Positions 18,562-26,136 of a stretch of DNA of 64,000 nucleotides are shown here, one piece after another; position 1 is the stretch's first letter; each line of letters begins with the position of its first letter. This DNA is from a phage, in the sequence record PZ452582.1; one strand, given 5' to 3'. The position numbers and the translations under genes are program-made. The notes under the pieces are model-generated. The model had not been told where the DNA came from and did no database searches. It saw only the letters and a program-made list of their open reading frames with translations.

Positions 18562-19530
18562 ATGAAAACTGTAACTATCAATAAGGGTATCTACTTCGGT
18601 AAAGAAATCTCTGGAACTTTTGAGCTCTTAGGTGAATGGTTCCCAGATAATGCTCCGGTAGATGCACAAGGAGATGGTAAAGTTTTTGTTGAAATTGACG
18701 GTAAGCGTCGCGGTGTTTGGGTTTACAAATCAGACATTTCATATGATGGTGTAAAAGTTGAAGAAGTTAAAGAATCATATGAAGATATGAAAACCCGCAT
18801 TAATAAAAGATTTAATGTTATGGGAATGATGACGAATGGTATTATTAACGGAAACATTCGTTCATTAATTATCTCGGGAGCAGCAGGTATTGGTAAAACG
18901 TATTCTTTAGATAAAGCTTTAAATAAAGCAAATGATATTGGATACATTGAATATAAAAGCATTAACGGTAAAATCTCTGGTATTGGTCTTTATGAGCAGC
19001 TTTGGAATAATCGTGAAGAGAATTCTGTCCTTTTGATTGATGATGTGGATGTTTTCTCTGATATGGACATTCTTAATCTTCTGAAAGCTGCTCTGGACAC
19101 TGGAGAGACCCGTAAAGTCTGCTGGAGCACTGCATCTTCTTACTTAGAAGAAAAAGGCATTGAGCGTGAGTTTGAATTTAAAGGAACGATTGTTTTTATC
19201 ACAAACGTTGACATTGACCGCGAATTAGACCGTGGTACTAAACTTGCTCCACATTTACAAGCATTAGTGTCCCGCTCAGTTTATTTGGATTTGGGTGTTC
19301 ACACTAATGAAGAAATTATGGTCAGGGTTGAAGATGTTATTCTTTCAACTGACATGATGCAAAAGCGCGGTCTTTCTGATGAAGAAACTTATAAAGCATT
19401 ATCATGGATGAAAGTCAATGTTAATCGTTTACGCAATGTTTCACTGCGTACTGCTCTTTATCTTGCTGACTTTATTATGACCGACAAAAACGGTTGGGAA
19501 GAAATTGCTGAGGTTACTCTTCTGAAATAA
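18562..19530 (+). CDS. AAA-type ATPase (322 aa)
   Basis: Walker A GAAGIGKT, Walker B LLIDDVD; SD aaggag. Confidence 0.7.
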   Translation: MKTVTINKGIYFGKEISGTFELLGEWFPDNAPVDAQGDGKVFVEIDGKRRGVWVYKSDISYDGVKVEEVKESYEDMKTRINKRFNVMGMMTNGIINGNIRSLIISGAAGIGKTYSLDKALNKANDIGYIEYKSINGKISGIGLYEQLWNNREENSVLLIDDVDVFSDMDILNLLKAALDTGETRKVCWSTASSYLEEKGIEREFEFKGTIVFITNVDIDRELDRGTKLAPHLQALVSRSVYLDLGVHTNEEIMVRVEDVILSTDMMQKRGLSDEETYKALSWMKVNVNRLRNVSLRTALYLADFIMTDKNGWEEIAEVTLLK

Positions 19531-19994: not shown

Positions 19995-20522
19995 ATGAAC
20001 GCTAAAGATATTTTCAACCTGGTAAATTACAACGATGGTAAATTTAAATCTGAAGCACAAAGCAAGTTCTTTAATGACATCTCAATCGGAGGTGAAATCA
20101 CGGTTGATGGAGGACAAATTTACAAATCCCGTTGGAATTGGATCGTTATTATCGATGAGATTGGTATTGTAGAAATTTACAAGAATACGAATAAAAATCG
20201 TACATTACACTGGTCTCGTGATACTAACGAACAGTACAAAAAGGATAAAGCATCTAAATTATCTCGTGTAACTCAAGAAGATATTGAGTTCATCAAGAAA
20301 GATATTTTGATGTATGATAAATTAATTGCTGAAGAGCAAGCTGTTATTGATAAATTTGACGAGATTAAAGCTTCTCGTGAAATTCCTGATTTTATGAAAG
20401 AATCAGTAAATGAACGATACACTCTCATTTCAGAGCGTATTGAAACTTACAAAAAGCAAAGAGCTGAACGCCAAAATACTCTTCGGAAGTTTGAAGAACG
20501 GTTAAAGACGGTACTCGCATAA
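19995..20522 (+). CDS. hypothetical protein (175 aa)
   Basis: ATG with SD ggagg; track ORF started at TTG within the promoter. Confidence 0.6.
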   Translation: MNAKDIFNLVNYNDGKFKSEAQSKFFNDISIGGEITVDGGQIYKSRWNWIVIIDEIGIVEIYKNTNKNRTLHWSRDTNEQYKKDKASKLSRVTQEDIEFIKKDILMYDKLIAEEQAVIDKFDEIKASREIPDFMKESVNERYTLISERIETYKKQRAERQNTLRKFEERLKTVLA

Positions 20523-20577
20523 CCGCTTTATACCAAGGATGGTATAATGGTTCTAAGCCCTTTTAATTGAGATTATT

Positions 20578-20985
20578 ATGAAACAGTTGATAATTAAAAG
20601 ATTGAATTTATTGATATGTTGTTTATGCGTAGTAGTTGCATATGGTTATTATGCTATTAATGATTATATGCATTATAAAGATTATGATGTTACTGTAGTT
20701 AATACCCTTACAGGAACTCAAGGAAAGGGGTCTAGTTTATCGTTTATTGCCGTATATGAACTCAAAGACGGCTATAGATTTAGCGAATATATTTCGCCAG
20801 AGATGTATTCATCAATAGAAAAAGGCGATAATATTACTGTAAGTTTACGTCCTTTCGACGTAAAACAGACATTGTTTGATAATATTGTTTGGTTCTTTGG
20901 AATGGTATTAGTTCAATCTGTGTGTGGTGCTTATATAGTCTGTTCCATCTTATTCTGTATATTTAGTAAAATTGAAATTGAGTGA
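20578..20985 (+). CDS. membrane protein (135 aa)
   Basis: N- and C-terminal hydrophobic helices. Confidence 0.55.
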   Translation: MKQLIIKRLNLLICCLCVVVAYGYYAINDYMHYKDYDVTVVNTLTGTQGKGSSLSFIAVYELKDGYRFSEYISPEMYSSIEKGDNITVSLRPFDVKQTLFDNIVWFFGMVLVQSVCGAYIVCSILFCIFSKIEIE

Positions 20986-20992
20986 GGAAAAT

Positions 20993-21880
20993 ATGTCAGT
21001 AGTAATTAATAATGTCAATGCAGTAATTAAATCTTTAGTTAATAAAAAATTGAATGAATGGATTGTACTTCGTCGTGGAGAGCCAGATAAATTTTTTCAT
21101 AGATTTAACCCAACTTTGGATTTGAATGTTATTGACAGAGATGTTCATGCTGAAATTTTAGATAAATTTAAAGTTGATATTGGGTTTGGATTAGATAAAC
21201 ATTTACAACGAACAAACGGGTCTGGAATGGGTTTATCTAATCGCATCATGAAAGCCCTTAATAAAATTGGAGCGTTGTCTCGTATTAATGCGAGTGAAAT
21301 CCTTCGCAATTATAATAAAGGATATGACCTTTATGGTCGGCTAATGCCGAAATTATCATTTGACCAAATGATCGCAGATTTGTGGGAAAATCAACGACGA
21401 TTATTAGCATTAGGCGCTCGATTAGCTAAAGGTCTAGATAAACAAATGATTTTTAAGACCAATAATACAGAAGACCTTAAATGCTTTAAATTTAGTATTC
21501 GGGGCGATGATTATTATATCAGAGCTCGCTCTACAGATTATGTTAATATGGGGCATCATCTCTGTTTAGCTTTTGAAGTTTTAAAAGAAGCCGGAACATT
21601 AGAATATTCATCTGGTGCAAAATGTCCAATTGGTTCAAGTTGTATTTTAATTTATCGCCCGGATGAATCCAGTTCAACTAAATTGCCTACAAAACCTGTA
21701 CCAGTTCGTAGTAACGAAAAACATTCTGAGCAAATTGATTATTTTAATAAGCAAATTGAAGAGCTGAATATTTCTATTCAACAATATGATGATGAAATTT
21801 TTAGACTATCTGGATTGAGTAGTAAAGCTAAATCTGAGCGTGAAAAATTAATTAAAATTGTTGATTTACTTAAATCTTAA
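20993..21880 (+). CDS. hypothetical protein with C-terminal coiled coil (295 aa), member of 4-gene tandem family
   Basis: SD gtgagga; C-terminal heptad-rich Lys/Glu segment. Confidence 0.6.
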   Translation: MSVVINNVNAVIKSLVNKKLNEWIVLRRGEPDKFFHRFNPTLDLNVIDRDVHAEILDKFKVDIGFGLDKHLQRTNGSGMGLSNRIMKALNKIGALSRINASEILRNYNKGYDLYGRLMPKLSFDQMIADLWENQRRLLALGARLAKGLDKQMIFKTNNTEDLKCFKFSIRGDDYYIRARSTDYVNMGHHLCLAFEVLKEAGTLEYSSGAKCPIGSSCILIYRPDESSSTKLPTKPVPVRSNEKHSEQIDYFNKQIEELNISIQQYDDEIFRLSGLSSKAKSEREKLIKIVDLLKS

Positions 21881-21888
21881 GGAACACT

Positions 21889-22908
21889 ATGAAAACTCGT
21901 TCTCAAATTGAAGATATGGTTCGTAATGCCAGCTATACTCGTGATGTTATGACATTTTTGTGCCAAAATAATTTAGACCCTGATAAAGTTAATCGTGATA
22001 TTCACTTTAAATATATGAATAGCAGTGAATGGTTACGTCATTTTAGTAAAGCGGGGTATATTACACAAATGACTGCTCGTGAGCAGCTCACCGATTTCTG
22101 TAAAACTATTGATTATAAAAATCCTCTGTTTGTTCAAGGTGTTGGTCAGAGTAAGGTCGATTTATCATCTGGATTTTTTAATCCAAATCATTATCGTCTT
22201 GAATGGAGATTTATTGCTCTATTCCGTAAACAATTAAAGCAAATTTTGTCGACGGCTAGTCGATTAAAAGGCTCTGATATTAACTTAAAGAATCTGAAAT
22301 TTGATGGTTATACTCTTCAGATGGAAGTAAGACCATTAAAAGAAAATAATAGAACTGCACGAATTAGCTTTAAACCTAATACAAAAAATTCTCTTTCAAT
22401 TTGTGAATGCCTTAAATCACAGTTGACAGAAGCATTTAAGTATATGGATGTTGTTGCCGCTGTTCAGTCTAAGATTTCACAGCATTTCGAACGATTTAAA
22501 TTAGACACAACAACGTATGAACTTGATATGATCGTTTCATTTAAATATGAATTTTTGAGAAAAGATGAAGTCCCGCAAGAGAAAAAGCAGGAAGTGCAAG
22601 ATAACTTAAATTTATCTAATTACTCATCAAACGATCCTAAATTTTGGATGTATAGTTCAGGTAATAAAGATGCATGGAAATTCAATAAAGTGAATTTTCT
22701 TCCTGTTGAAAATCCGAGTCTTAAACCTGTTGAAAAATGGCACGCGGATGCGATTGAGAAGTCTCTTAAGGCAGTAGATGATGAACTCGTTAAAGCGACC
22801 AATGAAGTGTTAGAAGCTGAAAAGATGCTAGAAAAAGCACAAGAAAAAGTCAAAAATCTCACGAAGCAACGTTCTAAATTGAACAATGCACTAAATGCAC
22901 TGAACTAG
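21889..22908 (+). CDS. hypothetical protein with C-terminal coiled coil (339 aa)
   Basis: Starts MKTR like 24020 ORF; C-terminal coiled coil. Confidence 0.6.
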   Translation: MKTRSQIEDMVRNASYTRDVMTFLCQNNLDPDKVNRDIHFKYMNSSEWLRHFSKAGYITQMTAREQLTDFCKTIDYKNPLFVQGVGQSKVDLSSGFFNPNHYRLEWRFIALFRKQLKQILSTASRLKGSDINLKNLKFDGYTLQMEVRPLKENNRTARISFKPNTKNSLSICECLKSQLTEAFKYMDVVAAVQSKISQHFERFKLDTTTYELDMIVSFKYEFLRKDEVPQEKKQEVQDNLNLSNYSSNDPKFWMYSSGNKDAWKFNKVNFLPVENPSLKPVEKWHADAIEKSLKAVDDELVKATNEVLEAEKMLEKAQEKVKNLTKQRSKLNNALNALN

Positions 22909-22937
22909 TTTACTTTGCCACAAGGATGTGGTATAAT
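22909..22937 (+). promoter_or_regulatory. early promoter (TTTACT-17-TATAAT)
   Basis: GTTTAC motif with consensus -10. Confidence 0.7.
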
Positions 22938-22965
22938 GTTCTTACTTTCTACTGAGGAGATTATT

Positions 22966-23967
22966 ATGACTCGTAACGAATATATCAAATCATTCAATAG
23001 CGTTATTGATGATAAAGCTATACCGATGTTTGGCCAAAATAGCGTTCTTTCTATTATCAATCAATGGCTCAATAGTGTTGATGCAGGTATTGTTTCTTCT
23101 GCTAAATTTATTCATGAAATTCGTAAAATTTCTAGCCGTGTAGATAAAGATAATATCAAGAAAACTTTTAAAGAGTCTCGTCTTCTTTCATATTTGGTTA
23201 ATCGGGATATTCTAGGTAATTTTGGGAAAGAAATTAAACGAACCAAAGATGTAGTAGGATATAATTGGTTCGGTGATGTTAATTCTTATCATCTTAATAA
23301 TAAAGAAGACCCTGAGAATATTTTTACTCGTCGTTGGATTAGTAATTTCAGACTTTTCAAAGGACAGATTCTAAAATCAGCTTCTAAATTATGTTATGGC
23401 GATTATCGTCAAATTCATCCTTTGGCTTCTGATATGATTATCATAAAAGAATATGAACTTGATAAAAATAAAGTATCTATTTTTGTGAATTATGGATTTT
23501 TTACACCAGAAACTAACCAAAAGAACATTAATAAATTTTTCTCAATTGCTAGCACTATAACTCGTCAATTAGAGACCGCATTACTTTGTATGGAAACAGT
23601 AGAAAATATTCATACATATCCTTTTAAGAATATATGCGGCTGGGAAGGATATAAAATTGTAATTAGTCTTCGTGAAGTAAAGTGCGCGTACTCACCGACT
23701 AATAAAGAAATTTACCAACAAAAATGTGAGGAAATTGTGAATACTCCTAAAGAAGAAACTACCCTTGAGGAACTAATGGATAATCTTGATGATTCGCCTG
23801 AACCGGCAGAAATTCGTCCAGAAGTTATTGCACTAGAAAAAGCTTATAAAGAAGTTCTAGAAATTTCTAATAAAGCGCAGAAAGAATATGAGCAGGCTAA
23901 AAAGATTTGGGAAGAATCCGTTAATCGTCTTGATCGTCTTGAACAAGCTTTACAGTTAATTAAGTAA
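22966..23967 (+). CDS. hypothetical protein with C-terminal coiled coil (333 aa)
   Basis: ATG with SD gaggag; track ORF began at 22915 inside the promoter. Confidence 0.6.
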   Translation: MTRNEYIKSFNSVIDDKAIPMFGQNSVLSIINQWLNSVDAGIVSSAKFIHEIRKISSRVDKDNIKKTFKESRLLSYLVNRDILGNFGKEIKRTKDVVGYNWFGDVNSYHLNNKEDPENIFTRRWISNFRLFKGQILKSASKLCYGDYRQIHPLASDMIIIKEYELDKNKVSIFVNYGFFTPETNQKNINKFFSIASTITRQLETALLCMETVENIHTYPFKNICGWEGYKIVISLREVKCAYSPTNKEIYQQKCEEIVNTPKEETTLEELMDNLDDSPEPAEIRPEVIALEKAYKEVLEISNKAQKEYEQAKKIWEESVNRLDRLEQALQLIK

Positions 23968-24019
23968 TTTAAAGCCAAGGATGGCTCGGAGTATAAACCA
24001 TTAACCAAGTGAGAAGAAT

Positions 24020-24943
24020 ATGAAAACTCGTAAACATTATATTGATTATTTTGACAGTCTTATTACTAAACACCGTAATTATCAGATCGGACACAGAGCA
24101 GTAATCAATAATATTCTTCGTGATTTTTTAGACTATATTGGATGGGAAAACCATATTTGTAAAGATACACAAAATGCGTATTCACATTCTCTTGGTTCTT
24201 TGCTCGAGTGGTTCAAACGTTCCCGATTACTATCTTCTGTGATAGCTGTTAATAATGTTAAAAAATTTATGTATCCAAGCTACATTGAGACTAATGTATC
24301 AAATGCTAATGTTGTTACATTTAATATTATTAATGACGTGAAAAGAACTTATTTAGAAGAATGGTTTTCTAAAAATAGTAAAGAAAAATTTGCTAGTGAG
24401 TTTTCACACGAATTTAATAATAATGTGAATATGCTTTTTAAGCATTCTCGTAGACTGTTTTGTCATGGCGATGACCGTACTATTAATGTAAATGTAAAAG
24501 ATTGGGTTACGGCTAAATTCATTCCATCGCAGAATGGACCAGTTGAATTGTCAATTATTGTTTGTGCTCCACATGAAATATATAAAAATCTTCCATATAT
24601 GAAACCATGCGAAGCTAATAAACATAATAAAACGATTCGTTCTTTGACTTATAATCTTCGTACGTTATTGTCTAAAATGGACGTAGTTGAATCCTTTGAT
24701 GATAATACAAATTATGGTCTTTCACTGTTTGAAACTAAAATTGTTATTAAGTTAAAGGACCCTAGTAAATTTAAACCTACACCAAAGCCCAATCATGGGA
24801 ATGATACTATGAAAGAAGAACGCGAATATCTCAGTGCTCGTTTGATTGAAGTTGAAAAACAGATTGAAGAGCATACTAAAGTTCTTAAGGCTTTAACAGC
24901 CAAAGCAAATGGTTTACGTGATGCTATTGAGGTACTGAAATGA
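24020..24943 (+). CDS. hypothetical protein with C-terminal coiled coil (307 aa)
   Basis: SD gagaag; C-terminal coiled coil. Confidence 0.6.
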   Translation: MKTRKHYIDYFDSLITKHRNYQIGHRAVINNILRDFLDYIGWENHICKDTQNAYSHSLGSLLEWFKRSRLLSSVIAVNNVKKFMYPSYIETNVSNANVVTFNIINDVKRTYLEEWFSKNSKEKFASEFSHEFNNNVNMLFKHSRRLFCHGDDRTINVNVKDWVTAKFIPSQNGPVELSIIVCAPHEIYKNLPYMKPCEANKHNKTIRSLTYNLRTLLSKMDVVESFDDNTNYGLSLFETKIVIKLKDPSKFKPTPKPNHGNDTMKEEREYLSARLIEVEKQIEEHTKVLKALTAKANGLRDAIEVLK

Positions 24944-25257
24944 AAAAGCGTTTATTAGAAGATATTGCAGCTTCAAGTAATTCCAGTCTAATTAAAATTA
25001 TTATGGCTGGTGAGGAAGATGATATGGAAATGCGTGGAAAGATTCACGGCTGCGACGATTTAGATTTTAAACCTCCAGCATGGGATGCTATTATGGCTAT
25101 GGTTGAACGACGTGAAAGAGCTTCTAAAAACGTTCCTAATTGCCCTGAGTGTGGAACTGAACAGGTGCAATTGGTCCATTGGCAGACTAATAATCTTCGT
25201 TATAAATGTCGTCATTGTAAACACCGATTTGACCGAGAAGAAAATGACAAAGCGTAA
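24940..25257 (+). CDS. zinc-ribbon protein (105 aa)
   Basis: CPECG...CRHCKH motif; ATGA overlap. Confidence 0.55.
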
Positions 25258-25486
25258 AGAATATATGGAGGCTGCTGAAAAGGCAGTCCGTGAATTAGCA
25301 ATAGCTTATTATAATGAACATGGTAAATTTCCTGATAGATACAGCGTGCTTAAATCAGCTTTAACTCGTTCATATAAAAATATGCTATCAGAAGTAAGTG
25401 ATATTATATACAAACATAAAGAACAAACGGGCCAAAGTCTTGATTACGACGAGACTTTTAAACAAGTACTAGGAATTAAGGAATAA
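25244..25486 (+). CDS. hypothetical protein (80 aa)
   Basis: ATG overlapping upstream end; track ORF 25085 is a spurious N-terminal extension. Confidence 0.45.
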
Positions 25487-25487
25487 T

Positions 25488-25751
25488 ATGTTTAAAGTAT
25501 ATGGTTATGATAGCAACATCCATAAATGCGTGTACTGCGATAATGCAAAACGTCTTTTGACTGTGAAGAAACAGCCGTTTGAATTTATCAACATTATGCC
25601 AGAAAAAGGTGTTTTTGATGATGAGAAAATTGCTGAGCTTCTGACTAAACTAGGTCGTGATACTCAAATCGGCTTGACAATGCCTCAGGTATTTGCTCCT
25701 GATGGAAGTCATATTGGTGGATTTGACCAATTGCGAGAATATTTTAAATGA
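25488..25751 (+). CDS. nrdC: glutaredoxin/thioredoxin NrdC
   Basis: 87 aa, CVYC active site, matches recalled T4 NrdC. Confidence 0.9.
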   Translation: MFKVYGYDSNIHKCVYCDNAKRLLTVKKQPFEFINIMPEKGVFDDEKIAELLTKLGRDTQIGLTMPQVFAPDGSHIGGFDQLREYFK

Positions 25752-25963
25752 TGCTTGAAGGAACTGACTATATTCACGATTACCGCGGCAGCGCGGTATA
25801 TGTAGGTGATGAAGTTGCAGTTTACTATGGGTATGGAACTTTGATGACAGCCAAGGTTATTCAAATTAAAAATAATCGTGCTAAACTCGAAGTTTATTAT
25901 TCTAACGGCGAAAAGTCTATTTCTAAGTGGAAATACGGCGATTGCATGGTCAAACTGGGGTAA
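25748..25963 (+). CDS. hypothetical protein (71 aa)
   Basis: ATGA overlap with nrdC. Confidence 0.5.
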   Translation: MMLEGTDYIHDYRGSAVYVGDEVAVYYGYGTLMTAKVIQIKNNRAKLEVYYSNGEKSISKWKYGDCMVKLG

Positions 25964-25965
25964 AT

Positions 25966-26136
25966 ATGATATACGATATTAGTGCAGCAAGAGCTCCATC
26001 AATGGTTACTATTCCTGTTGAAGAATTAGATCGTCTTCATAAAATTGAAGAACTTCTTTGGGAAATTGAATGTGACCTGCCATCAGGATTAGAATCCTGG
26101 ATTGATTATGAAGAACTTAATAAGCTTCGGGGTTAA
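25966..26136 (+). CDS. hypothetical protein (56 aa)
   Basis: First ATG after upstream stop. Confidence 0.4.
   Translation: MIYDISAARAPSMVTIPVEELDRLHKIEELLWEIECDLPSGLESWIDYEELNKLRG

Follow-up and report, generated by a model that had tools for sequence, protein, structure and literature searches.

A deletion mutant of phage T4 cannot grow on Escherichia coli ECOR17 because of Dsr1, a defense protein with a SIR2 domain, and expression of nrdC.5 alone from a plasmid restored growth of the mutant on cells that carry dsr1 (PMC9391042; Srikant, Guegler and Laub, eLife 2022). In the same report, nrdC.5 is described as an early gene. According to a 2026 preprint (PMC12803255), a phage major capsid protein acts as the trigger for the TPR sensor of Dsr1. 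A related defense protein with SIR2, DSR2, is triggered by a tail tube protein and is blocked by DSAD1 of phage SPbeta (PMC10973363, PMC11087589, PMC10981675). Here we analyze a stretch of phage DNA of 64,000 nucleotides (sequence record PZ452582.1, which we will call the window), in which four open reading frames (ORFs) lie in tandem. The second ORF is the ortholog of T4 nrdC.5, at the same position, and the other three are very likely its paralogs. The four genes are probably a paralogous accessory family of counter-defense proteins. Because of their paralogy with the Dsr1-neutralizing nrdC.5, the other three genes (nrdC.6, nrdC.4, and nrdC.3) are good candidates for further immune-evasion genes. 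Furthermore, gene 49.2 of T4 and T6, which is near the array, inhibits the OLD defense (PMC13096335). With one gene against OLD and another against Dsr1, this locus is a counter-defense hot spot.

The accessible text of PMC9391042 does not mention the paralogy of nrdC.6, nrdC.4, or nrdC.3, or a domain build or a mechanism. And in our searches of the literature, we found no other names or functions for nrdC.3 through nrdC.6 and no report of an anti-Dsr1 protein beyond that one.

Relationship among the four proteins

Positions 20500-25300 of the window match 594 phage records, nearly all of them from Tequatrovirus, and are 95.2% identical to T4 at the nucleotide level. Judging by this similarity, the window is from a T4-like phage of Tequatrovirus. 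By the annotation of the T4T record, these ORFs correspond to nrdC.6, nrdC.5, nrdC.4, and nrdC.3. The array is flanked by nrdC.7, which encodes a membrane protein, and by nrdC.2, and farther downstream are nrdC (for glutaredoxin) and gene 49. A preliminary description of the window, made from the letters alone, had listed four consecutive ORFs; all four hold up at the lengths given in Table 1, and each has a Shine-Dalgarno sequence. The genes are all in the same orientation, with short gaps or none between them. Relative to T4, the ratio of nonsynonymous to synonymous substitution rates (dN/dS) is 0.08-0.22 for the four genes, which indicates real genes that are subject to purifying selection. 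All four evolve faster than nrdC, gene 49, or nrdC.10, for which dN/dS is at most 0.03. The window's NrdC.5 is 94.4% identical to NrdC.5 of T4T at the amino acid level.

Curated families cover all four proteins. NrdC.5 matches DUF7235 (PF23882 in Pfam) with E = 5e-123 and 410.8 bits (the cut-off is 30), from residues 1-339 on model positions 1-307; the other three ORFs have no match to this model. NrdC.6 has a full-length match to PHROG 2257 (E = 1e-152), and PF26899 is the precomputed label of NrdC.6 homologs, including one that is 98% identical (P0174). NrdC.4 and NrdC.3 have full-length matches to PHROG 1435 (E = 8e-169 and E = 3e-101, respectively). Close homologs of NrdC.3 carry the precomputed label PF26897 (Phage_T4_Y04OP); the membership of NrdC.3 and NrdC.4 in this family is indirect, as it is read from the labels of homologs.

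The preliminary description considered the N-terminal domains of the four proteins to be dissimilar. This did not survive comparison. By BLASTP, NrdC.4 and NrdC.3 are 23% identical over 274 amino acids (E = 3e-5), which is the only link that pairwise BLASTP and phmmer found among the four proteins. When we aligned profiles with hhalign, the similarity of NrdC.4 and NrdC.3 had a probability of 97.8% (E = 1e-12). For the other links, we built profiles with orthologs from Gaprivervirus, Dhakavirus, and Mosigvirus and with homologs from the databases. NrdC.5 aligned to the NrdC.3/NrdC.4 family with a probability of 94% (E = 9e-8) across 298 columns, which begin at residue 2 and extend to the very C terminus. 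With small family profiles, NrdC.6 was not linked to the others (E = 0.02-0.06), and its link emerged with the broader profiles only: a profile of NrdC.5, NrdC.4, NrdC.3, and distant members aligned to NrdC.6 with a probability of 93% (E = 3.3e-7) across 244 collinear columns. Also, a distant member that is present in a single copy (P0212) has hidden Markov model (HMM) matches to all three groups, with E = 9e-10, 1.4e-8, and 2e-5 (in a target set of 5 sequences; the 2e-5 match covers HMM columns 7-262). So hhalign detects a relationship among all four proteins, and profile-profile similarity joins NrdC.6, NrdC.5, NrdC.4, and NrdC.3 in a way that is significant, collinear, and nearly full-length, as in a superfamily.

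Short motifs are shared as well. NrdC.5, NrdC.4, and NrdC.3 have three motifs in common: M-(K)-T-R at the N terminus, L..FGK, and MD-VE. As the preliminary description stated, two of the proteins start with MKTR (the second and the fourth); the third begins with MTR, so this start is a family signature. All four proteins have (A/S)(R/K)L..G.D after a conserved helix. NrdC.6 is the most divergent paralog. The residues that are invariant across NrdC.5, NrdC.4, and NrdC.3 are mostly hydrophobic (F70, L126, M186, V189, L331, and A334), with no obvious catalytic motif.

AlphaFold2 (AF2) models cover NrdC.5 and NrdC.6, with predicted local distance difference test (pLDDT) scores of 72 and 77, respectively. 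We compared the two models by the order of their elements and by their shared neighbors, rather than by superposition. Both have, in the same order, several helices, a helical pair, a beta-hairpin, a helix, another beta-hairpin, a linker, and a C-terminal helix. Using Foldseek against models of viral proteins (BFVD), we found that three proteins are matched by both models across about 320-350 columns, or nearly their full length (Table 1). Thus, for NrdC.5 and NrdC.6, the structure predictions that the preliminary description had suggested do point to the same fold. Given the collinear and near full-length profile matches and the same order of elements in the models, we are confident that the four genes of the array are tandem paralogs over their whole length, collinear from the N terminus to the C terminus.

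We also looked for a single variable specificity region that all of the paralogs would have in common, and found none. The variability of nrdC.3 is in its central part. As for NrdC.5, the proteins of Tequatrovirus are most alike in the alpha/beta core and most polymorphic in the linker, where 51% of the columns vary.

C-terminal helices and the proposed role of the family

All of the family members that we collected end in a proline-free stretch of 48-61 residues that reaches the last residue. In the four proteins of the window, these tails have 48, 50, 58, or 59 residues. The last 45 residues of each protein include 8-9 lysines and arginines, 8-9 aspartates and glutamates, no proline, and at most one glycine. 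In the AF2 model of NrdC.6, the two C-terminal helices are separated by a kink (SGLSS). A crude heptad score of our own for the a and d positions, which is not a calibrated predictor such as COILS or Marcoil, was reached by 1 of 300 shuffles for NrdC.5, 0 of 300 for NrdC.3, and 8 of 300 for NrdC.6. The preliminary description had called the C-termini heptad-rich and rich in lysine and glutamate; the charge and the proline-free tails agree with this for all four proteins, and the crude heptad score points the same way for these three. The tail of NrdC.4 has 48 residues in all NrdC.4-type sequences. In Tequatrovirus, the tail of NrdC.5 has 59 residues, compared with 52 in Gaprivervirus and Dhakavirus; the difference is exactly 7 residues, or one heptad, which fits a coiled coil. 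Overall, the helical C-terminal module is real and is probably a coiled coil, and it may oligomerize.

Within orthologous lines, the tail is often the part that is best conserved. When NrdC.6 proteins are compared between genera (with Tequatrovirus or Mosigvirus as one of the two), the last 50 residues are 56-70% identical and the rest is 26-45% identical. Nowhere is the NrdC.6 family better conserved than in this tail, and K243, Q247, I248, F251, L258, I262, D266-I269, L272, K280, E282, R283, and L292-K294 are invariant. For NrdC.4 orthologs between genera, identity is 57-74% in the last 50 residues and 42-51% in the rest; for NrdC.3, it is 67% versus 56%; and for NrdC.5, the tail is about equal to the rest or slightly higher. 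Between the two alleles of nrdC.3, there are 20 identities at 28 positions in the last 30-column block, versus 9-15 at 29-30 positions in several central blocks. That each paralog conserves its own tail fits with self-pairing or with a partner that is specific to the paralog.

We propose that the four tandem early genes are duplicates of a single ancestral gene, and that T4-like phages of the Klebsiella type still have this gene in one copy. The proteins share a common plan: a helical region at the N terminus, an alpha/beta core, a proline-rich disordered linker, and a proline-free amphipathic helix of 48-59 residues that continues to the last residue. Through the C-terminal helix, each protein would assemble with copies of itself into a coiled-coil oligomer. 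The proteins would be stoichiometric rather than enzymatic, and would bind a host immune protein and hold it inactive; for NrdC.5, the target would be Dsr1. And the paralogs and their alleles would be aimed at different host defenses, which would make the array a host-range toolkit. Taken as a whole (non-enzymatic, self-oligomerizing binders of host immune proteins, with different defenses as targets), we hold this proposal tentatively, as something close to but short of an even chance. We have much less confidence in the details of the mechanism than in the paralogy.

Several observations weigh against our proposal. Only nrdC.5 has an experimental link to defense; nrdC.6, nrdC.4, and nrdC.3 have none. 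Our structure models are of single chains, whereas the proposal is one of oligomers. The heptad score of NrdC.4 was not significant (18 of 300 shuffles), and its best window lies outside of the tail. We looked for gene-wide positive selection in the four genes, relative to T4, and found none (the dN/dS values are those given above). Finally, NrdC.6 has conserved polar residues (N99, D112, R116, N133, Q134, R136, R143, Q151, K155, and T156 are invariant, and D149 is nearly so), and these could mark an active site rather than a surface for binding.

We considered several other explanations. First, the proteins might have some other role early in infection, such as in host transcription, the nucleoid, or metabolism, with the effect on Dsr1 being indirect. 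We think this is unlikely. The genes are dispensable, vary in copy number, and are found in a narrow group of phages; the locus holds other counter-defense genes; and nrdC.3 is dimorphic, with a mosaic allele (see below). This pattern of turnover is typical of host-range genes, not of housekeeping genes.

Second, the preliminary description viewed the proteins as a family that docks to one partner by a common C-terminal module while the N-terminal parts vary in specificity. In such a family of adaptors, the shared partner could be a host complex or a phage protein. That the proteins form one family is correct, and they do share a helical module, with the rest diversified. All members end in L-x-x-[A/I]-[L/I/V]-x-x-L-K, after a long proline-free helix. 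If the last 21 residues are anchored at their ends, there are 3-6 identities in each of the six pairs of paralogs, and all six pairs beat composition-preserving shuffles (z = 1.6-3.6), although the resemblance in sequence is weak. And as described above, conservation within the NrdC.6, NrdC.4, and NrdC.3 lines is highest in the tail. However, we rejected the idea that the tails are a shared module that is better conserved between paralogs: the tails of different paralogs are 16-39% identical, which is no higher than for the N-terminal parts (19-28%). The N-terminal parts are homologous, rather than being swapped-in domains, and the tails have diverged as much as they have. The tails also differ in length, and the kink in NrdC.6 is missing from the model of NrdC.5. 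Since the conservation of the tails is specific to each paralog, we consider a single shared partner to be quite doubtful.

The one apparent case of a foreign N terminus on the tail of NrdC.5 is P0091, whose 173 amino acids comprise 120 residues with no match in phage genomes followed by the last 53 residues of NrdC.5 (98% identical to the window). We did not use P0091 as evidence for module swapping. It is from a contig of just 803 bases in the European Nucleotide Archive (ENA), and its N-terminal part is in no phage genome; it could be a real recombinant, or it could be an artifact of assembly or gene calling. Two partial tblastn matches to P0091 proved to be an ordinary NrdC.5 (in phage LYE-01) and a frameshifted NrdC.5 (in Ec_YwIITB1).

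Third, given the resemblance of the core of NrdC.5 to tail terminator proteins (discussed in the last section), these early proteins might be coiled-coil decoys or plugs for bacterial pattern-recognition sensors of conserved phage structural proteins, with one sensor for each paralog or allele. If so, then the phage would have recruited its own structural fold for immune evasion. This is more doubtful still.

Fourth, the four paralogs might hetero-oligomerize via their C-terminal helices into one complex with a single function. The genes lie side by side in one orientation, with little or no space between them, and the helices are similar in length and have related terminal motifs. But the copy number varies from 1 to 4, and single genes have been lost, broken, or fused in phages that are otherwise similar (LYE-01, Pinarejo, Manna, and Ec_YwIITB1). 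Also, nrdC.5 alone on a plasmid restored infection, although the accessible text does not state which nrdC genes the mutant retained (PMC9391042). We think that a hetero-complex is improbable.

Finally, it is highly improbable that the proteins are enzymes, acting for instance on NAD+-derived molecules or modifying host proteins, with the coiled coil only setting the oligomeric state: the polar block of NrdC.6 (N99...T156) and the (A/S)(R/K)L..G.D motif of all four proteins would fit with this, but our searches of Pfam, NCBIfam, and PDB sequences for a known function gave only chance matches to coiled coils and no enzyme family, the structural neighbors are non-enzymatic virion proteins, and the invariant residues of the other three proteins are mostly hydrophobic.

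Distribution, turnover, and the surrounding locus

We compared the copy number of the family across T4-like phages, as had been suggested in the preliminary description, and found from 1 to 4 copies. Most Tequatrovirus have four copies, and Mosigvirus, Dhakavirus, and Gaprivervirus have three. Klebsiella T4-like phages and two metagenomic lineages of T4-like phages have just one copy, which likewise lies upstream of nrdC at the same position. The family is tiny and is confined to T4-like phages: a search of 1.84 billion representative proteins with the profile of NrdC.5, NrdC.4, and NrdC.3 found 22 proteins at E <= 1e-3, and all of those that we examined are from T4-like phages. Structural relatives with 11-16% identity are present in T4-like phages of Erwinia, Klebsiella, Acinetobacter, Pectobacterium, Serratia, Citrobacter, Enterobacter, and Aeromonas.

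We also considered the genes upstream of the single-copy members as potential members of the family, but rejected them because they are unrelated. These neighbors encode proteins of 272 amino acids in L010 (5116-5934), 262 in L013 (4115-4903), and 241 in L008 (1-726). They are conserved, and they have neither a C-terminal helix tail nor a Pfam label.

Within Tequatrovirus, the array is prone to the loss and rearrangement of its genes. In phage LYE-01, nrdC.4 is absent; in Pinarejo, nrdC.6 is reduced to its last 47 codons; and in Ec_YwIITB1, nrdC.5 is frameshifted. Salmonella phage Manna lacks nrdC.5 and has an NrdC.6::NrdC.4 fusion (L006, 4215-5252). Another fusion, P0056, joins residues 145-271 of NrdC.5 to residues 134-307 of NrdC.3 at a short match, N-x-V-N. 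And NrdC.6 of Shigella phage Sf25 (P0092) has an internal tandem duplication of 83 residues.

In Tequatrovirus, nrdC.3 exists in two forms. The window has the T4 type, which about 140 records match at 90% identity or more, and about 359 records are at 60-80% (the records that we sampled from this band are 60-63% identical). The second allele is mosaic: its center (roughly residues 85-270) resembles the Mosigvirus gene, and both of its ends are of the Tequatrovirus type. This suggests that there was exchange between genera. The array thus adds an example of the turnover of copy number and of alleles in a phage counter-defense hot spot.

Another part of the same region differs between the window and T4. 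Between nrdC and 49.1/pin (25748-26136), the window lacks the T4-type 49.3 and 49.2. In their place are an ORF of 71 amino acids (25748-25963) and an ORF of about 56 amino acids that ends at 26136. Phage Pinarejo carries the same pair of ORFs, of which the second bears the annotation "antitoxin from a toxin-antitoxin system." It seems that a cassette has been replaced in the counter-defense hot spot.

The early promoter that the preliminary description placed upstream of nrdC.4 stands as a sequence (Table 1). It reads GTTTACT, a 17-nucleotide spacer, and TG-n-TATAAT, and a promoter is annotated at the equivalent position of phage NBG1. From its match to the consensus, we predict a promoter of the T4 early type. 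The Shine-Dalgarno region of nrdC.4 (22950-22965, TGAGGAGATTATT) includes GGAG, which is the motif that is cut by the T4 endoribonuclease RegB. The Shine-Dalgarno sequences of nrdC.6, nrdC.5, and nrdC.3 are GAGG, AAGG, or GAGA, without GGAG. We also noticed two short GC-containing hairpins, one inside the spacer of the predicted promoter (22916-22933) and one in the 52-base gap between nrdC.4 and nrdC.3 (23975-23989, + strand, CCAAGGATGGCTCGG). Our scan flagged both of them as terminator-like, and neither has a convincing run of T on the + strand.

Two other genes of the region are also of note. The ortholog of nrdC.10 (18562-19530, 322 amino acids) has a P-loop, with weak, sub-threshold similarity to families of AAA and STAND NTPases (AAA_14, E = 6e-5; nSTAND3, E = 5e-4). 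It is highly conserved: the protein is 99.7% identical to that of T4, with dN/dS of 0.03. The ortholog of nrdC.2 (24940-25257, 105 amino acids) overlaps the end of nrdC.3 by 4 bases. Its C-terminal part has a zinc-ribbon pattern, CPEC...CRHC, with weak matches to many families of zinc ribbons.

Table 1. Coordinates of the array and its features in the window, with structural neighbors of the NrdC.5 and NrdC.6 models (aa, amino acids)
Feature	Position	Strand	Basis
nrdC.6 ortholog, 295 aa	20993..21880	+	ORF and Shine-Dalgarno, T4T annotation
nrdC.5 ortholog, 339 aa	21889..22908	+	ORF and Shine-Dalgarno, Pfam DUF7235 (PF23882)
nrdC.4 ortholog, 333 aa	22966..23967	+	ORF and Shine-Dalgarno, PHROG 1435
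nrdC.3 ortholog, 307 aa, T4-type ("type A") allele	24020..24943	+	ORF and Shine-Dalgarno, PHROG 1435
Predicted T4 early-type promoter 5' of nrdC.4	22909..22937	+	Consensus scan, 10/12, with extended -10
NrdC.6 helix-kink-helix (predicted), aa 245-271 and 277-294	21725..21874	+	AF2 secondary structure
NrdC.5 alpha/beta core (approximate, predicted), aa ~100-227	22186..22569	+	Two helices, beta-hairpin, helix, beta-hairpin, helix
NrdC.5 proline-containing linker (predicted disordered), aa 226-281	22564..22731	+	pLDDT <50
NrdC.5 C-terminal helix of 56 residues, probable coiled coil, aa 283-338	22735..22902	+	AF2, pLDDT 78-89
NrdC.4 proline-free tail, aa 286-333	23821..23964	+	48 residues past the last proline
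NrdC.3 proline-free tail, aa 258-307	24791..24940	+	50 residues past the last proline
nrdC.3 copies noted for allele dimorphism	window 24020-24943; L006 5305-6234; L007 7287-8216		
BFVD A0A0A0PZG4, Pectobacterium phage PM2			E 6.7e-6 and 6.5e-6, the two models
BFVD E5E4A2, Acinetobacter phage Acj61			E 4.5e-6 and 2.8e-4, the two models
BFVD A0A1V0DXL6, Yersinia phage fHe-Yen9-01			E 2.3e-5 and 3.1e-3, the two models

Comparison with known proteins and systems

In the AF2 model, the core of NrdC.5 has a fold similar to that of tail terminator or tail completion proteins (lambda gpU, T5 p142, SPP1 gp17-like proteins, and the collar proteins of Mu and pyocin). However, NrdC.5 is just 4-13% identical to these proteins and has no match to their Pfam families, so by sequence it does not belong with them. 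NrdC.5 is also predicted to carry parts that tail terminators do not have: an additional region of helices at the N terminus, a long linker, and a coiled coil at the C terminus. Furthermore, tail terminators are encoded by late virion genes in the tail module, while nrdC.5 is an early gene of an accessory region: the array is in the region from nrdC to gene 49, on the early strand, with an early-type promoter. We interpret the match as a resemblance of predicted folds only, and not as descent.

Pfam and PHROG already treat NrdC.3 and NrdC.4 as one family (PF26897 and PHROG 1435), but they keep NrdC.5 (PF23882 and PHROG 2351) and NrdC.6 (PF26899 and PHROG 2257) separate. Here, the three curated families are joined. 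The genes themselves and one function (nrdC.5 against Dsr1) were already known; what is modestly new is the unification into one superfamily with four paralogs, its domain plan with a core that resembles tail terminators, and the dynamics of its alleles and copy number. Three genes without a function are now placed in one family with the only T4 gene that is known to defeat the NAD+-depleting defense of Dsr1.

In sequence and fold, our comparison of DSAD1 with NrdC.5 found no similarity. In its role, DSAD1 is the closest parallel to what we propose for NrdC.5: it is a phage inhibitor of a defense-associated sirtuin whose sensor recognizes a virion protein. From this analysis, the anti-Dsr1 protein gains a domain plan, and the system as a whole is not of a new kind.

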